A DNA stretch of 64,000 nt, from positions 6,710 to 70,709 of the forward strand of contig DAIQBH010000002.1 in NCBI GenBank assembly GCA_036781285.1. Direction: 5' to 3'. The notes under the pieces were generated by a model. It had not been told where the DNA came from. It was given only the letters and a program-made list of their open reading frames with translations, and made no database searches. Shown here piece by piece: positions 2,750 through 9,510 of this stretch. This DNA is from Thermodesulfobacteriota bacterium (GTDB lineage: Bacteria; Desulfobacterota; Binatia; UTPRO1). The number at the start of each line of letters is the position of its first letter. The first letter of the stretch is position 1. The position numbers were made by a program, and so were the translations under genes.

Positions 2750-3259
2750 ATGCGGAGTCATCTGGCGTTGGTCGTCGTGGTCGCGCTGACCGGAGCGGCC
2801 TGCACACGTACCGTACAGTCGGCCAAGAGCGATCCTTGCCCGGCCCCCCAGGCGGCGCGGTCCGTCTCTGGAAGCGGCATCGGCATCATCGGCATGTCGC
2901 TCGACCGCCATCCCGACGGGTCGGGAACGCCGGAGCTCTTCGTCGACCGGGTCGCGCCCGAAGGTCCGGCGGCGAGCGCCGGGGTCCGATCCGGCGACCG
3001 GATCTACAGCATCGAAGGAACGTCGACCGCCGGCATGTCGGTCGCCGAAGCCGCGCGCCGGCTGCGTGGACCTACCGGAGCGTCGATCGCGCTCGCCGTC
3101 GGCGAGAACGGCCGCGTGCGCGACGTCACGATCACGCGGGTCGCTCCGAGCGACCTCTGGAACCGCGCCGGGACGGCGCGCCCGGGCGGCGGCGAGCGCG
3201 TGCACGCGAGCGACGTGGCGCCGGCCGCCGCCGTCGCGGTGCCGCCGTGCCGCCAGTGA
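2750..3259 (+). CDS. PDZ-domain lipoprotein
   Basis: ATG at 2750 follows a GAGGGAG RBS. Signal peptide with lipobox (VALTGAAC). PDZ-like GIGIIGMSLDR...GDRIYSIEG motif. The long upstream ORF 2114-3259 in the same frame is an artefactual extension overlapping the acyltransferase. Confidence 0.7.
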   Translation: MRSHLALVVVVALTGAACTRTVQSAKSDPCPAPQAARSVSGSGIGIIGMSLDRHPDGSGTPELFVDRVAPEGPAASAGVRSGDRIYSIEGTSTAGMSVAEAARRLRGPTGASIALAVGENGRVRDVTITRVAPSDLWNRAGTARPGGGERVHASDVAPAAAVAVPPCRQ

Positions 3260-3263
3260 TGCG

Positions 3264-3752
3264 TCAGGCTTTGCAGAGCACGCCGGCCGTCACGAAATAG
3301 CTGCCGGTTTCGTTGACGATGCCGCCGAAGACGTCGGCGGTGCCCGCGGGCTCGACGTGGGCGACGGCGACGGCTCCGGCCGACACTTGGGTGCTGCCGT
3401 CGGCACGGCGGAAGACGTACCCCGCGGGATAGTGGGCGCTCGTGTCGAGCAGCTCGCCGGGCGCGAGGGCGGTCACGGGACGCTCGACGCGGCCGGCGGC
3501 GTAGAACACGTGGCCCGCGTCGACGACGATCGCTTGCCCGTTGTCGAAGACGACGCGCAGCACCGGGACGGCGGATGCCGTCATGGCGATCTTGGTGAAC
3601 AGCCGAAATCCGATGCGTTCGTTCGGCAGCCGCGTCATCACGGTGATCGACTTGCCGACGAGCCCGCCGATCGCGACCGGCCCGTCGACCGTCTCGATCA
3701 AGCTCTCGCCGGTGAGACATCCCCGCTCACACCCTCGCTGGTCTGCGCCCAC
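3264..3752 (-). CDS. Orphan Hint/BIL-like (Hedgehog/intein) domain protein
   Basis: CLTGESLIETVDG matches intein/Hint block A (nucleophilic Cys, conserved T and I). VVDAGHVF matches block B (TxxH-like). GTG start at 3752 is preceded by AAGGAG at the right spacing. There is no terminal HN splice motif. Confidence 0.55.
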   Translation of the reverse strand: MGADQRGCERGCLTGESLIETVDGPVAIGGLVGKSITVMTRLPNERIGFRLFTKIAMTASAVPVLRVVFDNGQAIVVDAGHVFYAAGRVERPVTALAPGELLDTSAHYPAGYVFRRADGSTQVSAGAVAVAHVEPAGTADVFGGIVNETGSYFVTAGVLCKA

Positions 3753-3884
3753 GTCGGCTCCTTCCTGGTGGCGCGCATCCGGCGCCGGCGGCTTCCATAC
3801 ACGGCGCCGCCGCATGCGCCAACGCGCCGTACCTCCCCCGTTGACAGTCCACACCCCCTCTGCGAGGAACGCGCCGCCTCCACC

Positions 3885-4301
3885 ATGCCTCGGCATTTCG
3901 CCTACCGTGCGCTCGCCGCCGTGACCGCGTTCTTCTTCTTCCTGTTCGGCTTCGTGTTCATCTGCGGCTTCATCGATCGCGCCCTGTTCCAGGTCTTCGC
4001 GCGGCCGCTCTTCGACACCGACCCCTGGGGGTATTACATGCTGGGCGTGGCGGGATCCGTCCTCGTCATGTGGGCCGTGGCACTCGCGTCGGTGGTGCGC
4101 ACACCGGCCGCGAATCCCGGCGTCGCGACCGCGACCACGGTCGGCCTCGTCCTGGGCTCGATCCTCCGACTTCTCGCGTGGTACTCGGGCGAGTATCGCC
4201 TCGCCGCGGATCAGCTCCGGCTCGAGTCGGCGGTCTTCCTGGTCCTCGCCCTCGGCTTCGTCTGGCTGCGCCCGCCGCGCGCGGAATCGCCGACCGCATG
4301 A
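3885..4301 (+). CDS. Small integral membrane protein (about 4 TM helices), function unknown
   Basis: ATG at 3885. Hydrophobic segments AAVTAFFFFLFGFVFICGFI, MLGVAGSVLVMWAVALASVV, TTVGLVLGSILRLLAWY, AVFLVLALGFVWL. Its stop overlaps the next start (ATGA). Confidence 0.5.
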   Translation: MPRHFAYRALAAVTAFFFFLFGFVFICGFIDRALFQVFARPLFDTDPWGYYMLGVAGSVLVMWAVALASVVRTPAANPGVATATTVGLVLGSILRLLAWYSGEYRLAADQLRLESAVFLVLALGFVWLRPPRAESPTA

Positions 4302-4924
4302 GCGACACGCGGCCGTCGCAGCAACCGATCGTCGTCGGACGCATCGGAGTCACGTTGCTCTGCGTCTACCTGTTCGCCGTGACGTTGCGGATCGGCGGCT
4401 GCTACGCGCCCGAGCCGGCGCGGCACGACAAGCTTCCGAGCAGCGGGCCGGCCGTCGGACAGCCGTTCCCGGAGTTCGTCCTGCGCGACGTGAGCGGCGT
4501 CGAGATCGCCTCCCGTGACCTCCGCGGCGCGCGCGCAGTGCTCGCGATCGTGCCGAGCCTGGATTGGTCGCCGCCGACGAAGGCACGGGTGCTCGATCTC
4601 GCCGAAGCGGTCGCAAAGCGCCGCGACCTGCGCGTCGCCGTCGTCCTGCCGGCCGCGCAAGCGTCACCACGGAGCCTGGCCTTCGTTCGGGACCGCGAGT
4701 TGCCGCTCTACGTGCTCGTCGACGACGCCGGACTGATCGAGCGCCTCGGCCTCACGGCACCTGCACCGGACGGCACGCCCGCGGCACACCCCGCGACGTT
4801 CCTCCTCGACGCCGAGGGCCGCGTCCTCGTACGCGACACGCGCCGCGACGCCCGCACCTGGCCCGTGCCGACGCTCGTGCTCGACGCTCCCGCGGCGCGC
4901 GACACGGGCGCCACGGCGCCCTGA
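4298..4924 (+). CDS. Thioredoxin-fold (AhpC/TSA/redoxin-like) protein; no canonical CxxC or peroxidatic Cys is evident
   Basis: Redoxin-like layout (PFPEFVLRDVSGVEI...LRGARAVLAIVPS...). N-terminal TM/signal segment. Translationally coupled to the upstream membrane protein and 37 nt upstream of eutB. Confidence 0.5.
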   Translation: MSDTRPSQQPIVVGRIGVTLLCVYLFAVTLRIGGCYAPEPARHDKLPSSGPAVGQPFPEFVLRDVSGVEIASRDLRGARAVLAIVPSLDWSPPTKARVLDLAEAVAKRRDLRVAVVLPAAQASPRSLAFVRDRELPLYVLVDDAGLIERLGLTAPAPDGTPAAHPATFLLDAEGRVLVRDTRRDARTWPVPTLVLDAPAARDTGATAP

Positions 4925-4961: not shown

Positions 4962-6353
4962 ATGCACCTCTCGACCCGCGTCCACGGACGCAGCCATCGC
5001 TTCGGATCGGTGCGCGAGGTGCTCGCGCGCGCGAACGAGCCGAAGGCGGGCGACGAGCGCGCCGGGATCGGCGCCCGCTCGCACCTCGAACGTGCCGCCG
5101 CCAAGCTCGTGCTCTCCGAGCTCACCCTCGCCGATCTTCGCGCCCACCCCGTAGCGCCGCTCGACGAGGACGAGGTGAGCCGCGTGATCGACGCCGGCGT
5201 CGACGAGAGCGTCTATCGCGAGATCCAGGGCTGGAGCGTCGCCGAGCTTCGCGACTGGCTTCTCGCCGACGACACGACGCTGGAGGCGATGCGGCGCGTG
5301 AGCCGCGGCCTCACCGCGGAAATGGCGGCAGCCGTGGTCAAGCTCTCGTCGAATCTCGACCTCGTGTACGGCGCGCGCCGCCTACCGGTGACGACGCGCG
5401 CGCGCACGACCGTCGGCCTCCCCGGCCGCCTCAGCACCCGACTACAACCCAACCATCCGAGCGACGACCCTCGGGGGATCACCGCGTCGATCTACGAGGG
5501 TCTCGCCTACGGCGCGGGCGACGCGCTGATCGGCATCAACCCCGTCATCGACGAGGTCGACAACGTGACCGCGCTCTTGCGTCTCACCGCCGACGTCATC
5601 GAGCGGTGGCGGATCCCGACGCAGAATTGCGTCCTCGCCCACGTGACGACCCAGATGCGCGCACTCGAGCAAGGCGCGCCGATGGACATCCTCTTCCAGA
5701 GCCTCGCCGGCACCGAGACCGCCGTGCGAAGCTTCGGCACGTCGGTCGCGATGCTCGACGAGGCGAGCGCCATGATCCGCGAGCGGTCCACGCTGCGCAC
5801 GCGCGGCACCGTCGGCCCACCTCCGACGCAGCTCATGTACTTCGAGACGGGTCAGGGATCCGAGCTCTCCGCCGGCGCGCACGGCGACGCCGACCAGGTG
5901 ACGCTCGAGGCGCGCTGCTACGGGCTCGCCCGGCGCTACGACCCGTTCCTCGTCAACACGGTCGTCGGTTTCATCGGGCCAGAGTATCTCGCCGACGGCC
6001 GCCAGATCGTGCGCGCCGGACTGGAAGACCACTTCATGGGAAAGCTGCTCGGCGTCCCGCTCGGCGCTGACGCCTGCTACACGAACCACGCCGACGCCGA
6101 CCAGAACGACTGCGACACGCTCGCCACGCTGCTCACGACCGCCGGGTGCAACTACTTCATGGGCGTGCCGGCCGGCGACGACGTCATGCTGAGCTATCAG
6201 TGCACGAGCTACCACGACGGCGCGACGCTGCGGCAGCTGCTCGGCCTCAGGCCGGCACCGGAGTTCGAGGCCTGGCTCGTCGACCAGGGACTCATGCACG
6301 ACGGAAAGCTCACGAGCCGGGCCGGCGATCCCGGCTTTTTCGTGCGCCCATGA
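4962..6353 (+). CDS. eutB: Ethanolamine ammonia-lyase large subunit
   Basis: Full-length collinear match to EutB (VLAHVTTQ, YFETGQGSELSAGA, GLEDHFMGKL, CYTNHADADQND, NYFMGVPAGDDVMLSYQ). Confidence 0.93.
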   Translation: MHLSTRVHGRSHRFGSVREVLARANEPKAGDERAGIGARSHLERAAAKLVLSELTLADLRAHPVAPLDEDEVSRVIDAGVDESVYREIQGWSVAELRDWLLADDTTLEAMRRVSRGLTAEMAAAVVKLSSNLDLVYGARRLPVTTRARTTVGLPGRLSTRLQPNHPSDDPRGITASIYEGLAYGAGDALIGINPVIDEVDNVTALLRLTADVIERWRIPTQNCVLAHVTTQMRALEQGAPMDILFQSLAGTETAVRSFGTSVAMLDEASAMIRERSTLRTRGTVGPPPTQLMYFETGQGSELSAGAHGDADQVTLEARCYGLARRYDPFLVNTVVGFIGPEYLADGRQIVRAGLEDHFMGKLLGVPLGADACYTNHADADQNDCDTLATLLTTAGCNYFMGVPAGDDVMLSYQCTSYHDGATLRQLLGLRPAPEFEAWLVDQGLMHDGKLTSRAGDPGFFVRP

Positions 6354-7099
6354 AGACCGCGACGCCACCCCCGCCACCGGCGCTCGCCGCGCTCCTCGCC
6401 ACGACGCCCGCACGGCTCGCGATCGGCCGGACGGGCCCGCGCCCCACGGCCGCGACGTACCTCCGCTTCCTCGCCGACCATGCACGAGCACGCGATGCCG
6501 TCTTCACCGAAGTACCCGCCGCGGTCGTGAAGAAGCTCGGCCTGGTCGAGATCGCAACGGCGGCGCCGTCGCGCGCCGCCTACCTGCGAGAGCCCCGCCT
6601 GGGGCGCGCGCTCGCGCCGAGCGCGCGGACCCGGCTCGCGCGCTGCCGGAAGCGTCCCGAGGTCCAGCTTCTGCTCGTCGACGGACTCTCGTCGACGGCG
6701 GTGATCGCGCATGGCGGCGCGCTCCTCAGGAAGCTGACGACGCTCCTCCGTGCGCGCGGGCGTCGACTCGGCACGCCGCTCTTCGTTCGCAACGGCCGCG
6801 TGCGCGTACAGGACGAGATCGGCCACGTGCTCCGCCCCGAGGTCTGTTGCGCGATCGTCGGAGAGCGTCCCGGGCTCGCGACCGCGAGCAGCCTCTCCGC
6901 GTACGTCATCCATCGACCGACACGCGCATCCACGGAGCCGGATCGAACGCTGATCTCCAACATCCACGACGGTGGCCTCTCCGTCGTCGCAGCGGCGCGG
7001 CAGATCGCGGATCTCATCGACGAGTGTCTCGCGCGCGGTGCGAGCGGTGCGGCACTCGCCGACGCGCGCGCGGCCGCAGCGACCCCGCAGCCCCGATAG
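6350..7099 (+). CDS. eutC: Ethanolamine ammonia-lyase small subunit
   Basis: ATG at 6350 overlaps the eutB stop (ATGA). EutC-like core (LLLVDGLSSTAV, CAIVGERPGL, SNIHDGGLS). Confidence 0.88.
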   Translation: MKTATPPPPPALAALLATTPARLAIGRTGPRPTAATYLRFLADHARARDAVFTEVPAAVVKKLGLVEIATAAPSRAAYLREPRLGRALAPSARTRLARCRKRPEVQLLLVDGLSSTAVIAHGGALLRKLTTLLRARGRRLGTPLFVRNGRVRVQDEIGHVLRPEVCCAIVGERPGLATASSLSAYVIHRPTRASTEPDRTLISNIHDGGLSVVAAARQIADLIDECLARGASGAALADARAAAATPQPR

Positions 7100-7252: not shown

Positions 7253-8428
7253 GTGCAGCGCGCCCTCCTCGGCCTAGTCGTCTGTCCCCGGTGTCGCGAG
7301 CGGTTCGACCTCGATGTCTTCTGCGAGGAGCGCGTGGGCTCGGGACGCGAACCGGAGATCGTCGAAGGCGCGCTCCGCTGCACGGCGTGCGTCGCGGCGT
7401 TCCCGATCATCGAGGGCATCCCGCGCCTCCTCGGTCCGGCATTGCTCGCGCGCATGCGCCGGCGGCATGCACGGTTCTTCACCGCGCACCCCGAATTCCT
7501 CGCCGCGGACCATGCGGACGACGACCCCCTCGCCGACACGCTCGAGAGCTTCACGCGCCAACGACTCGATCTCGGCCTTCCCGGCCCGGAGCTCGCCGCG
7601 CAATGGCGCGTCAATCTCCAACGCAATCTCGGTGACGCCATCCAACTCGAAGAGCTGCGCGGCCGCCGCATCCTCGATGTCGGCTGCGGTTTCGGACGCC
7701 ATCTCCGAATCGCGAGCGACCACGGCGCGGAGGTCGTCGGCATCGACCTTTCGGGCGGCGTCGAGGTCGCCTATCGCAACCTCGCCGGTCGGCCGAACTG
7801 TCACGTGGTCCAGGGCAACGTCTACGAGCGTCCGCTGCGAGACGAGGTCTTCGATGTCGTGTGGTCCTTCGGCGTGCTGCACCACATGCCCGACCCGGCC
7901 GCGGGCTTTCGCGCGCTCGTCGAGTTCGCGCGGCCGAAGGGCGGCCTCGTCGCGATCTGGGTGTACGGCTATCGCGGCATGAGCTTCACCTACCGGCTCT
8001 CGCACATGCGCGCGCTGCACGCGTTCACCCGCGAGCTCTCCGGCACCGCGCGTCTCCGCGCGTCGCAGGCGGTCGCCGCCGGCCTGTCCGCGTTCTACTG
8101 GGAGCCGCTGCGAGCCCTCCGCGCCATCGGGCTCGGCACGATCGTCGATCGTCTGCCGCTCACTGACTACGTCGCGCACGACTTCTCGGCACGCGTAGCC
8201 GGCGTGCACGACCGCCTCTCGACGCCGATCACCCACTTCCACGATCACGACGAGCTGACCGAGTGGCTCCGCGCGGCGCGTCTCGTCGACATCCACGTCG
8301 AGGACACGAACCGGCGCGGGTGGCGCGCGTGGGGCCGCCGCACTCCGCGCCTCGAAGCCCCCACGCGCACGCATCCACTGGCCAACGGCTTCTCCACGCG
8401 CGGCGACGATCGGCCGGTCGTCCACTGA
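7253..8428 (+). CDS. Class I SAM-dependent methyltransferase with an N-terminal Trm112-like zinc ribbon
   Basis: CPRC...CTAC zinc-ribbon pairs at the N-terminus. Rossmann motif I ILDVGCGFGRH. Confidence 0.75.
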   Translation: MQRALLGLVVCPRCRERFDLDVFCEERVGSGREPEIVEGALRCTACVAAFPIIEGIPRLLGPALLARMRRRHARFFTAHPEFLAADHADDDPLADTLESFTRQRLDLGLPGPELAAQWRVNLQRNLGDAIQLEELRGRRILDVGCGFGRHLRIASDHGAEVVGIDLSGGVEVAYRNLAGRPNCHVVQGNVYERPLRDEVFDVVWSFGVLHHMPDPAAGFRALVEFARPKGGLVAIWVYGYRGMSFTYRLSHMRALHAFTRELSGTARLRASQAVAAGLSAFYWEPLRALRAIGLGTIVDRLPLTDYVAHDFSARVAGVHDRLSTPITHFHDHDELTEWLRAARLVDIHVEDTNRRGWRAWGRRTPRLEAPTRTHPLANGFSTRGDDRPVVH

Positions 8429-8487: not shown

Positions 8488-9510
8488 GTGGTGCGCACGC
8501 TCGCTTACGGTCTCGTCGTCGTCACGCTCGCGCTCGTCGCCCTCGCGGTCTGGGTCGCGCGCGCGCAATACCCGCGCCTTCGGGTCGAGAACCTGGCCTT
8601 TCGTTTCCTCGTTCCGCTCGGACAGCGGCTCCTGGGCGTTCACCGCCCCGTCGCCGCCGGCAGCACCCCCGTGTTCGTCTGGGAGGACCCGAAGACGCTC
8701 GAGACGCTCCGCCACACCCATGACCTCGACCGCGTCGTCGCGGCCGGCACGAACGACTTCGAGCGCTGGGTGCTGCTCATGCACTGGGCGCGCGACCGCT
8801 TCCCACACCTGCCGAACCCGAACGCCCCGGACGCCGACGCGTTCGACGGCGTCGCCCTCCTCGCGCGACACCGCGAGGGCGGCTACCTCTGCGGGACCAT
8901 CGCACCGCTGCTCGTGCAAGCCGTGACCGCCCTCGGCGGCCACGCCCGTCGTGTCGAGCTGCGCCACACGCCCGGCGACAGTCACGTCGTCACCGAGGTG
9001 TGGTCGGAGCATCACCGCAAATGGATCGTGCTCGATCCGGACTACGACATCTTCTTCACCGTAGACGGCGTGCCGCAACACGCGCTCGAGCTGCATGCTC
9101 TGTGGGCGGCGAACGCCGTCGACACGGTCCGCATTCACTGGCGCGAGAGCCCGCACAACATCTATCGCCCCGACCTCGAGGGTGGACGGCGTGACTTCCT
9201 CCGCATGATCTACGAGACGCGCGACTGGCCGCGCTGGGACCGCGAACGCAATCAGCACAAGGGCGAGCGTTTCGCGGTGCGCCTTCTGCACTACTACTCG
9301 CACGTGTCGTTTCCGCTGCGGAACGACTGGCGGTCGCGACCGTTGCCCTGGTGGCATCCCGAGGGCAACCACGTCCAGGGATCGCTCGTGATCACGCGCC
9401 CGACGATGCCGGCGTGGGAGGACTTCGTCGTGACGACCGCGGACCCGACGGCGCTCTACGCGCCCCCGCCGGGCGCCGCTCAGGCGCTCAGCCGCTCCAG
9501 CTTCTCGTAG
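8488..9510 (+). CDS. Transglutaminase-like cysteine-protease superfamily protein with an N-terminal TM helix
   Basis: Cys-His-Asp arrangement YLCGTIAPLL ... DSHVVTEVW ... WIVLDPDYD, as in the transglutaminase-like core. GTG start. The 375-aa ORF 8245-9372 on the opposite strand is an antisense shadow. Confidence 0.7.
   Translation: MVRTLAYGLVVVTLALVALAVWVARAQYPRLRVENLAFRFLVPLGQRLLGVHRPVAAGSTPVFVWEDPKTLETLRHTHDLDRVVAAGTNDFERWVLLMHWARDRFPHLPNPNAPDADAFDGVALLARHREGGYLCGTIAPLLVQAVTALGGHARRVELRHTPGDSHVVTEVWSEHHRKWIVLDPDYDIFFTVDGVPQHALELHALWAANAVDTVRIHWRESPHNIYRPDLEGGRRDFLRMIYETRDWPRWDRERNQHKGERFAVRLLHYYSHVSFPLRNDWRSRPLPWWHPEGNHVQGSLVITRPTMPAWEDFVVTTADPTALYAPPPGAAQALSRSSFS

Follow-up and report, generated by a model that had tools for sequence, protein, structure and literature searches.

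A stand-alone Hint gene of Candidatus Binatia as a probable exapted mini-intein of ribonucleotide reductase descent

The 64,000-nucleotide stretch of DNA considered here (hereafter the window; contig DAIQBH010000002.1 of the Thermodesulfobacteriota assembly GCA_036781285.1, positions 6,710 to 70,709) carries on its minus strand, at positions 3264-3752, the gene of a small free-standing Hint protein. We regard this gene, with high confidence, as an exapted or "domesticated" mini-intein, comprising a complete Hint domain and descending from the lineage of inteins that interrupt ribonucleotide reductases (RNRs) at the thiyl-radical site (TNP|C...SN|CGE). In it a bacterial mini-intein has left its host protein entirely, has lost what splicing needs and persists throughout Candidatus Binatia as a gene of its own, on which purifying selection acts; what was once a selfish element seems to have been taken into service for a new job other than protein splicing. 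The evidence for this origin, the function that the conserved residues may serve and the alternatives to this reading are set out below.

The gene, its fold and its intein ancestry

The elements of the gene are listed below from 5' to 3' on the coding strand, each with the evidence on which it was assigned.

3264..3752, minus strand: complete gene of the extein-less mini-intein-like Hint protein, stop codon included (open reading frame, homologues, codon usage, ratio of nonsynonymous to synonymous substitution rates, dN/dS)
3758..3765, minus strand: ribosome-binding site GGAAGGAG, 5 nt 5' of the GTG at 3750-3752 (read from the sequence)
3720..3752, minus strand: 11-residue leader MGADQRGCERG, with the family motif R-R-C-x-x-G (alignments A1 and A5)
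3681..3719, minus strand: intein block A, CLTGESLIETVDG, residues 12-24, in which Cys12 (3717-3719) corresponds to intein residue 1 (hhalign)
3504..3527, minus strand: intein block B, VVDAGHVF, residues 76-83, with Asp78 at 3519-3521 and His81 at 3510-3512 (hhalign)
3375..3458, minus strand: family-specific segment, residues 99-126 (conservation table, RNR-intein alignment, strands of the model)
3291..3335, minus strand: block F equivalent, DVFGGIVNETGSYFV, residues 140-154 (alignment to the P0154 mini-intein, ...DVYCGTVDETGRFYL...)
3267..3290, minus strand: block G equivalent, TAGVLCKA, residues 155-162, with Cys160 at 3273-3275 and the stop directly after (P0154 alignment)

The open reading frame extends from a GTG at 3752-3750 to a TGA at 3266-3264 and translates into a product of 162 amino acids. 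The GTG start supported by AAGGAG, as proposed in the initial annotation of this DNA, is sound: GGAAGGAG lies at 3765-3758, and the orthologues back the short start, since a GGAGG-type site followed by GTG or ATG 8-12 codons ahead of the Cys codon is found in 16/16 distinct orthologous upstream regions, and one orthologous locus (L007) has an in-frame stop immediately 5' of the short start. A longer ATG start at 3896 was considered and discarded, as it would run into the beginning of the divergent gene (3885) and finds no support among the orthologues. The short start leaves MGADQRGCERG ahead of Cys12 (codon 3719-3717), in accordance with the earlier count of about 11 residues before the nucleophilic Cys. 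Within this leader, Cys8 (codon 3729-3731) is conserved in 50/53 members of the window subfamily and Gly11 (codon 3720-3722) in 53/53, and the residues of the RRCxxG motif persist across loci despite synonymous codon changes, which indicates that the leader is translated and that selection acts on its amino acids. The GC content of the gene (69.5%) and that of its third codon positions (88%) are the values of the neighbouring genes and of the window. The protein is acidic to neutral (isoelectric point, pI, ~5.9), and neither a signal peptide nor a transmembrane segment is predicted in it.

Searches with the single sequence returned no match in Pfam at E<10 and none in the PDB by phmmer, a profile search of the PDB gave no match either, and in NCBIfam only values of E 0.02-0.04 were obtained, to the intein parts of the DnaB and RtcB models; PADLOC and PHROGs gave no defence or phage family match. 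Among 5.8 billion proteins, 127 homologues were found, nearly all of 150-175 amino acids and labelled "hypothetical". An alignment of 30 homologues (A1) displays three conserved segments, RRCxxGC(L)xGxSLIETVDGP, VDxGHVF and AGTADVFGGxVNETGxYFxTAGVLCKA, and its profile gave 525 matches at E<=1e-3 in 1.84 billion representative proteins. These include ~20 further stand-alone proteins of 150-175 amino acids, as well as intein-bearing RNRs and one family-A DNA polymerase (PolA), the latter two at E 1e-18 to 1e-8. The long matches carry the Pfam domains Ribonuc_red_lgC, Intein_splicing and Hint, and the stretch matched in the RNRs is the intein itself, inserted as TNP|C...(S/A)N|CGE directly ahead of the thiyl-radical cysteine. 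When A1 was compared by hhalign with nine RNR mini-inteins, a probability of 99.8% and an E of 4.5e-29 were obtained, with Cys12 paired to intein Cys1 and D78-A-G-H81 paired to T-P-N/D-H of the RNR inteins. These values put the block motifs well outside chance resemblance. The intein relationship was exposed only by a profile search of a very large library and by profile-profile comparison. When the 149 members of the family were run against Pfam, Intein_splicing was touched by 80/149 at E<=1 and Hint_2 by 11/149, and the pretoxin domain PT-HINT is not among the 25 families listed out of 34 matched in all.

The same picture emerges from structure prediction. With the 149-sequence alignment, AlphaFold2 yields a model with a mean predicted local distance difference test score (pLDDT) of 93.2 and a predicted template modelling score (pTM) of 0.86, the alignment being needed since the single sequence gave a pLDDT of 33. 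The model has a Hint fold in which both the N and the C halves are present, and the top 50 matches found by Foldseek in the PDB are all Hint domains of inteins, bacterial intein-like (BIL) proteins or Hedgehog. The placement of the gene as a stand-alone member of the Hint superfamily, put forward in the initial annotation, is accordingly borne out by model, structure search and hhalign alike. At the level of hidden Markov models it holds for the family profile and the profile-profile comparison, and fails for the single sequence against Pfam at E<10. The label "BIL-like" does not stand, for the nearest relatives are genuine RNR inteins and not BIL or PT-HINT domains. A simple neighbour-joining tree groups the stand-alone proteins in a single clade adjacent to the RNR inteins (bootstrap 0.56) and recovers the window subfamily at 0.975, a topology that would loosely fit a single domestication followed by duplication.

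Across 185,579 species, each represented by a single genome, the A1 profile finds 18 loci, all from metagenome-assembled genomes (MAGs) labelled Candidatus Binatia, Deltaproteobacteria or "Polyangiaceae UTPRO1", and no relatives of the Hint protein were found in viral contigs. The stand-alone members that carry a taxon name are all from Binatia, except for MAGs with the generic labels Deltaproteobacteria or Polyangiaceae and two third-party-annotated MAGs. The order of the locus is kept: EutB, a redoxin-like protein and a membrane protein lie divergently to the Hint gene, towards which, on its other side, the PDZ gene (where present) runs convergently, followed by genes of an acyltransferase and a glycosyltransferase. 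This syntenic position is fixed in at least 20 Binatia loci, and, because the immediate neighbours vary, the synteny is read as vertical inheritance and not as an operon; to judge from these comparisons, the gene has been passed on vertically in all of Candidatus Binatia, always at this one syntenic position. Its coding sequence is under clear constraint, since 14 orthologous coding sequences, compared between Cys8 and the stop, are free of indels and have a dN/dS of 0.13-0.45 relative to the window gene.

Catalytic positions and the possible function of the family

The residues that inteins employ in splicing were compared with those of the window protein in the block nomenclature of Mills, Johnson and Perler (PMC4031507).

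A:1, usually Cys: Cys12 (kept)
B:7, usually Thr: Asp78
B:10, usually His: His81 (kept)
F:4, usually Asp, Cys or Trp: Gly143
F:13, usually His: Gly150
G:6, usually His: Lys161
G:7, usually Asn: Ala162
+1, usually Cys, Ser or Thr: stop codon

Blocks A and B had been recognised in the initial annotation and are where it placed them, CLTGESLIETVDG being residues 12-24 and VVDAGHVF residues 76-83. The absence of a C-terminal HN-Cys/Ser/Thr junction, which had also been noted, is equally real: the protein terminates in ...ETGSYFVTAGVLCKA-stop, and, where the closest of the mini-inteins, that of P0154, ends in ...DVYCGTVDETGRFYLAAGVLVSN|CGEQ (AAGVLVSN|CGEQ), the window protein ends in ...DVFGGIVNETGSYFVTAGVLCKA-stop (TAGVLCKA), so that the chain stops exactly at the last residue of the intein. 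With the C-extein, the terminal Asn and the +1 nucleophile all absent, neither C-terminal cleavage nor steps 2-4 of splicing can, as judged from the residues present, take place, and the earlier statement that this is not a splicing intein is upheld. The N-S acyl shift at Gly11-Cys12 (step 1), with the participation of His81, would still be chemically conceivable. Compared with a class 1 intein, the protein has the block A nucleophile and lacks the C-terminal Asn and the assisting residues; it is not an in-frame insertion with exteins to be ligated, as the flanking genes are unrelated and lie on other strands or in other frames, and it offers no sign of mobility, with no endonuclease domain (all of the 162 residues belong to the Hint domain) and a fixed syntenic position.

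Within the window subfamily, C12 is conserved in 50/53 members (it is replaced or deleted in several orthologues), D78 in 50/53 and H81 in 49/53, while C160 is kept in 49/53 of these close members and in 94/96 of a second subfamily; the full set C8/G11/C12/D78/H81/C160 is kept in 85/121 of the window orthologous group. Three features distinguish the stand-alone proteins from the RNR inteins, namely the leader with Cys8 and the invariant Gly11, Cys160, and the segment of residues 99-126. The last of these, with the motif G-E-x-L-D-T-S-x-H-Y/F-P-x-G-Y-x-F-R-R-x-D-G-x-x-x-S-x-G, has no counterpart in the aligned RNR inteins and sits where large inteins carry the endonuclease or a linker. L102 and S124 never vary in either of the two stand-alone subfamilies compared, P109 and Y112 hardly ever, and strands 113-115 and 121-123 of the AlphaFold2 model would form a beta-hairpin, which makes the segment a candidate for a new functional surface. 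A role in DNA binding, as suggested by the region with which large inteins recognise DNA, was rejected given the pI of ~5.9 and the lack of a basic surface signal. Likewise discarded was the idea that the RRCxxG leader is a relic of the RNR N-extein, to whose TNP|C junction it shows no similarity.

Two groups of relatives are informative on the role of the N-terminal junction. The syntenic orthologues P0111 and P0112 (L029 3001-3459 and L031 3001-3456) have neither leader nor Cys1: P0111 starts with M-S-A-S-A-E-S-L and P0112, which also has C160S, with M-M-T-G-E-S-L. Their starts are unambiguous, because in both cases the ATG overlaps the stop of the upstream gene (ATGA). The dN/dS between them is 0.19, and that between two leader-bearing orthologues is 0.20, which means that selection on the body does not depend on the presence of an N-terminal junction; some orthologues can do without the leader and Cys1. 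The second subfamily (P0124-like) is 35-45% identical and gave 247 matches at E <= 0.001, of which the best 120 were considered (proteins P0124 and P0270-P0388; loci L023-L028). Among the matches listed, five members carry a taxon name, two of them from Candidatus Binatia and one from Deltaproteobacteria, the remaining two being third-party-annotated MAGs (Margulisiibacteriota and Acidoferrales). According to hhalign, this subfamily has Gly or Ala at intein position 1 and Cys at -1; its block-B His is replaced by Gln in 96/96, Ala or Gly stands at B:7, 94/96 retain the C160-K-A ending, and an additional conserved Cys is present at position 151. Its members are predicted to be incapable of the canonical acyl shift, yet they are as conserved as the window subfamily. 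Their genomic contexts are unrelated to one another, and when sample accessions were matched in order to place the two subfamilies in one genome, all assemblies differed. Two further divergent clusters (P0123-like and P0136-like) have members labelled Binatia, and these divergent stand-alone relatives together suggest a diversification into several subfamilies.

On these grounds we propose that the selected function sits in the folded Hint body, probably including the aromatic hairpin of residues 99-126, and that the former splice-junction region would have been rebuilt as a cysteine cluster. The N-terminal segment and the last strand adjoin in the Hint fold, and both subfamilies compared have one Cys in the N-terminal segment together with Cys160 in the last strand. 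The N-terminal Cys (C8 and C12 in the window subfamily, the -1 Cys in the sister subfamily) and the new Cys160 probably act together, with C8, C12 and C160 possibly forming a thiol switch based on a disulfide or a metal. Each of these three cysteines is kept in ~90% or more of the members, and where one is lost another tends to be lost too (odds ratio 11 for C12/C160, p 0.005; 98 for C8/C12, p 7e-5; both uncorrected for phylogeny). The 11-residue leader might still be trimmed off by a His81-assisted N-S acyl shift at Gly11-Cys12, as a reaction that is accessory or residual; this is suggested by the retention of Gly(-1), Cys1 and His81 in ~90% of the subfamily. That the window protein does so is a plausible expectation, if slightly the less probable one, and trimming would not be the reason for which the gene is retained. 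Taken as a whole, an exapted mini-intein working in this manner is the best explanation, to which we would assign a probability of about 0.6.

Several observations weigh against this explanation and temper it. The statistics of cysteine co-loss ignore phylogeny, the monophyly of the stand-alone clade has a bootstrap of only 56% in a simple neighbour-joining tree, and C160 aligns two residues before the position of the terminal Asn, not at +1 or at a position like that of Hedgehog C143. All three cysteines are replaceable in some lineages, so that they cannot be the whole of the function. The gene neighbourhood, in which the immediate neighbours vary, gives no functional partner. Finally, the retention of Gly(-1), Cys1 and His81 at ~90% over a deep divergence would be more readily accounted for by an active N-S acyl shift than by a role in structure alone, which keeps the idea of an N-terminal reaction, advanced in the initial annotation, alive for the window protein.

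Such a reaction as the very purpose of the gene, which is what the initial annotation had proposed (autocleavage or thioester formation), is nevertheless unlikely. In this scheme a single-turnover N-terminal autoprocessing, in which Cys12 would attack the carbonyl of Gly11 and form a thioester, would serve to release, cyclise or transfer the RRCxxG leader, through hydrolysis or thiolysis, through a Cys8 thiolactone, or through a Hedgehog- or BUBL-like transfer to another nucleophile. Besides the retention of Gly(-1), Cys1 and the block-B His in ~90% or more of the close family, it can draw on the leader motif (R6, R7, C8, G11), which arose after the split from the RNR exteins, where -1 is Pro, and on the existence of Hint domains that pass an N-terminal cargo to an outside nucleophile, as in Hedgehog (PMC12054796) and in BIL2 of BUBL (PMC8616854). 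It is contradicted, however, by the leaderless syntenic orthologues, which have Ser or Met at position 1 and are under equal purifying selection (dN/dS 0.19), and by the equally conserved sister subfamily, devoid of Cys1 and of the block-B His (Gln in 96/96). The change of Thr B:7 to Asp, the Gly at the equivalent of F:4, the lack of a signal peptide and the lack of any neighbouring gene that resembles a peptide exporter, receptor or target also speak against it. A more specific and quite improbable version would see the bare Hint domain as a single-use generator of peptide thioesters, in which the acyl shift at Gly11-Cys12 activates the leader (x)RRCxxG, to end either as a four-residue Cys8 thiolactone (AgrD-like, without AgrB) or, by way of a Cys160 hand-off, on an outside nucleophile in the manner of Hedgehog and BUBL; the leaderless orthologues would then be lineages which lost peptide activation and kept a second function. 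If true, it would represent an enzyme-free route for peptide tagging or signalling in bacteria.

Two further explanations can be largely set aside. That the gene is a decaying remnant, either a dead intein of a disrupted gene or one half of a fractured or split gene, is in keeping with the loss of the residues assisting catalysis other than Cys1 and His B:10, and with the absence of any known family annotation. It is very improbable and largely refuted in view of more than 120 full-length homologues of constant length, of the 14 orthologues free of frameshifts and indels with dN/dS well below 1 (0.13-0.45), of the conserved ribosome-binding site and start, and of flanks occupied by PDZ, acyltransferase and membrane-protein/redoxin genes with no RNR fragments; moreover, both Hint halves are present, and there is no endonuclease and no viral copy. 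Hardly credible is the assignment to a BIL or pretoxin-HINT domain of a secreted polymorphic-toxin or surface-protein system whose cargo is encoded separately. The touches of Pfam Hint_2 by 11/149 members at E<=1 would agree with it, but it is contradicted by the sequence relatives, which are RNR inteins, by the lack of a signal peptide or transmembrane segment, by the absence of toxin, immunity or secretion genes nearby (none by PADLOC), and by a locus that is strictly syntenic instead of variable. The exapted mini-intein selected for its folded body therefore stays the preferred explanation.

Neighbouring genes and the rest of the window

The genes adjoining the Hint gene on either side are as follows.

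2750..3259, plus strand: convergent PDZ-domain protein, a probable lipoprotein, listed for context only (Pfam PDZ_6 and PDZ, E 1e-12)
3885..4924, plus strand: divergent pair of a 138-residue membrane protein (3885-4301) and an AhpC/TSA-fold protein (4298-4924) (Pfam)

The arrangement described at the outset, convergent with the PDZ gene (2750-3259) and divergent from the gene of the 138-residue membrane protein (3885-4301), is correct. Only 4 nt separate the PDZ stop codon from that of the Hint gene (window 3257-3266), which leaves no room for an intergenic terminator, and a scan of 3100-4000 for promoter and terminator consensus sequences, uninformative at 69% GC, found none. The PDZ gene is missing in L001, L003, L010, L011 and L017. 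The pair of membrane protein and AhpC/TSA-fold protein is present in every Binatia locus, and in L010-L016, L029 and L031 another gene separates it from the Hint gene; the pair is probably syntenic context and not a functional partner. Neighbours were in fact rejected as functional partners in general, considering that a zinc-dependent alcohol dehydrogenase (zinc-ADH) gene is inserted in one clade, that the PDZ gene is often missing and that the contexts of the second subfamily are unrelated. In the clade in question (L010-L016, L029 1976-3459, L031 1988-4142), the inserted gene, of the zinc-dependent alcohol dehydrogenase/quinone oxidoreductase type, lies 5' of the Hint gene, and the junction between the two is an ATGA stop-start overlap, which implies translational coupling. 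A gene of the NnrU family is found 3' of the Hint gene in at least L031 and L033.

The AhpC/TSA-fold (redoxin) protein (4298-4924, plus strand), whose ATG overlaps the stop of the 138-residue membrane protein gene (ATGA at 4298-4301), has an N-terminal transmembrane helix and no Cys at the canonical active-site position; its motif PSLDWSPPTKA is kept, with S/T or P/A swaps only, in every Binatia locus with the gene. As the canonical Cys is absent and the Cys-less motif is conserved, the protein is probably neither a peroxidase nor a thiol-disulfide oxidoreductase. Directly 3' of this pair are the genes of EutB and EutC (ethanolamine ammonia-lyase; 4962-7099, plus strand), as in every Binatia locus examined. 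They are followed by a methyltransferase gene (7253-8428, plus strand), whose L001 orthologue has a weak N-terminal match to Trm112p (PF03966) in Pfam, and by a second open reading frame (8488-9510, plus strand), whose L001 orthologue has a weak Pfam match to the transglutaminase core. Over the whole 64-kb window (1-64000) no tRNA gene and no Rfam family at the gathering threshold were found, and the many long antisense open reading frames (for example 3066-4301, plus strand, 411 amino acids) are artefacts expected at 69% GC.

Significance and comparison with known systems

Inteins are generally viewed as selfish elements, and, to our knowledge, clear cases of recruitment by a host are few: animal Hedgehog, yeast HO, and conditional splicing switches, the last of these still inside their host proteins. 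In full-text searches of the literature, no description was found of free-standing, orphan, extein-less, endonuclease-less or domesticated bacterial Hint genes. If confirmed, the family would amount to a natural experiment on the non-splicing uses of a naked Hint fold, for which a thiol switch, metal binding and peptide activation are candidate activities, and it would provide a compact scaffold (151-162 amino acids, no endonuclease) possibly useful for protein engineering. Its importance is modest until a function is found, and its interest is mainly for specialists of inteins and Hint domains.

The closest known systems are the class 1 mini-inteins of RNRs (NrdJ/NrdA type; P0154 and the NrdJ-1 intein of solved structure, 8UBS), to which the Hint protein aligns from end to end with 23-28% identity, sharing Cys1-x-T-G-D/E, LVGKxxPVLT, the block-B His, DV(F/Y)xGxVxET and AGVL. 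Unlike them, the Hint gene has no host protein, with an 11-residue leader in the place of the N-extein and a stop codon in the place of the C-extein; its product has a terminal Ala, Asp at B:7, a Cys two residues from the end and the hairpin 99-126; and the gene is not mobile, being syntenic and vertically transmitted within one bacterial class. Inteins that respond to redox state or to zinc offer precedents for a thiol switch in the Hint superfamily: for mycobacterial DnaB inteins, the sensing of oxidative stress by an intein and a reversible inhibition of splicing by zinc are reported (PMC6195587, PMC7360933).

Hedgehog/Hog domains resemble the Hint protein in the Gly(-1)-Cys1 junction and in the lack, in both, of a terminal Asn and of a splicing step. 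By contrast, the large signalling cargo at the N-terminus of Hedgehog and its C-terminal region for sterol recognition are both missing here, and the relatedness in sequence to Hedgehog is far below that to inteins. The Hint module of Hedgehog has towards its end a second catalytic Cys, C143, which pairs with Cys1 in a disulfide and also forms a branched thioester (PMC12054796), a precedent for cysteines of a Hint domain acting together; in an alignment made through the RNR inteins, Cys160 is placed two residues before the C143-equivalent position. In the BUBL locus of Tetrahymena, the N-terminal cargo of BIL2 is passed on to lysines, and zinc activates the domain (PMC8616854). Proteins that contain BIL or PT-HINT domains are larger, variable and often secreted, and the domains process real cargo, whereas the Hint protein is cytoplasmic, cargo-less, encoded at a fixed locus and closer in sequence to true inteins.

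The last comparison is with HO and WHO of yeasts, which, like the gene described here, are independent genes derived from inteins and not in-frame insertions; HO is reported to have been recruited for a host function (PMC7282806; bioRxiv 10.1101/2020.01.20.913210). HO and WHO keep the LAGLIDADG endonuclease and act on DNA, and HO also has a zinc finger, whereas the Hint protein is a bare splicing domain, bacterial and without a nuclease, which resembles HO only in its domestication.

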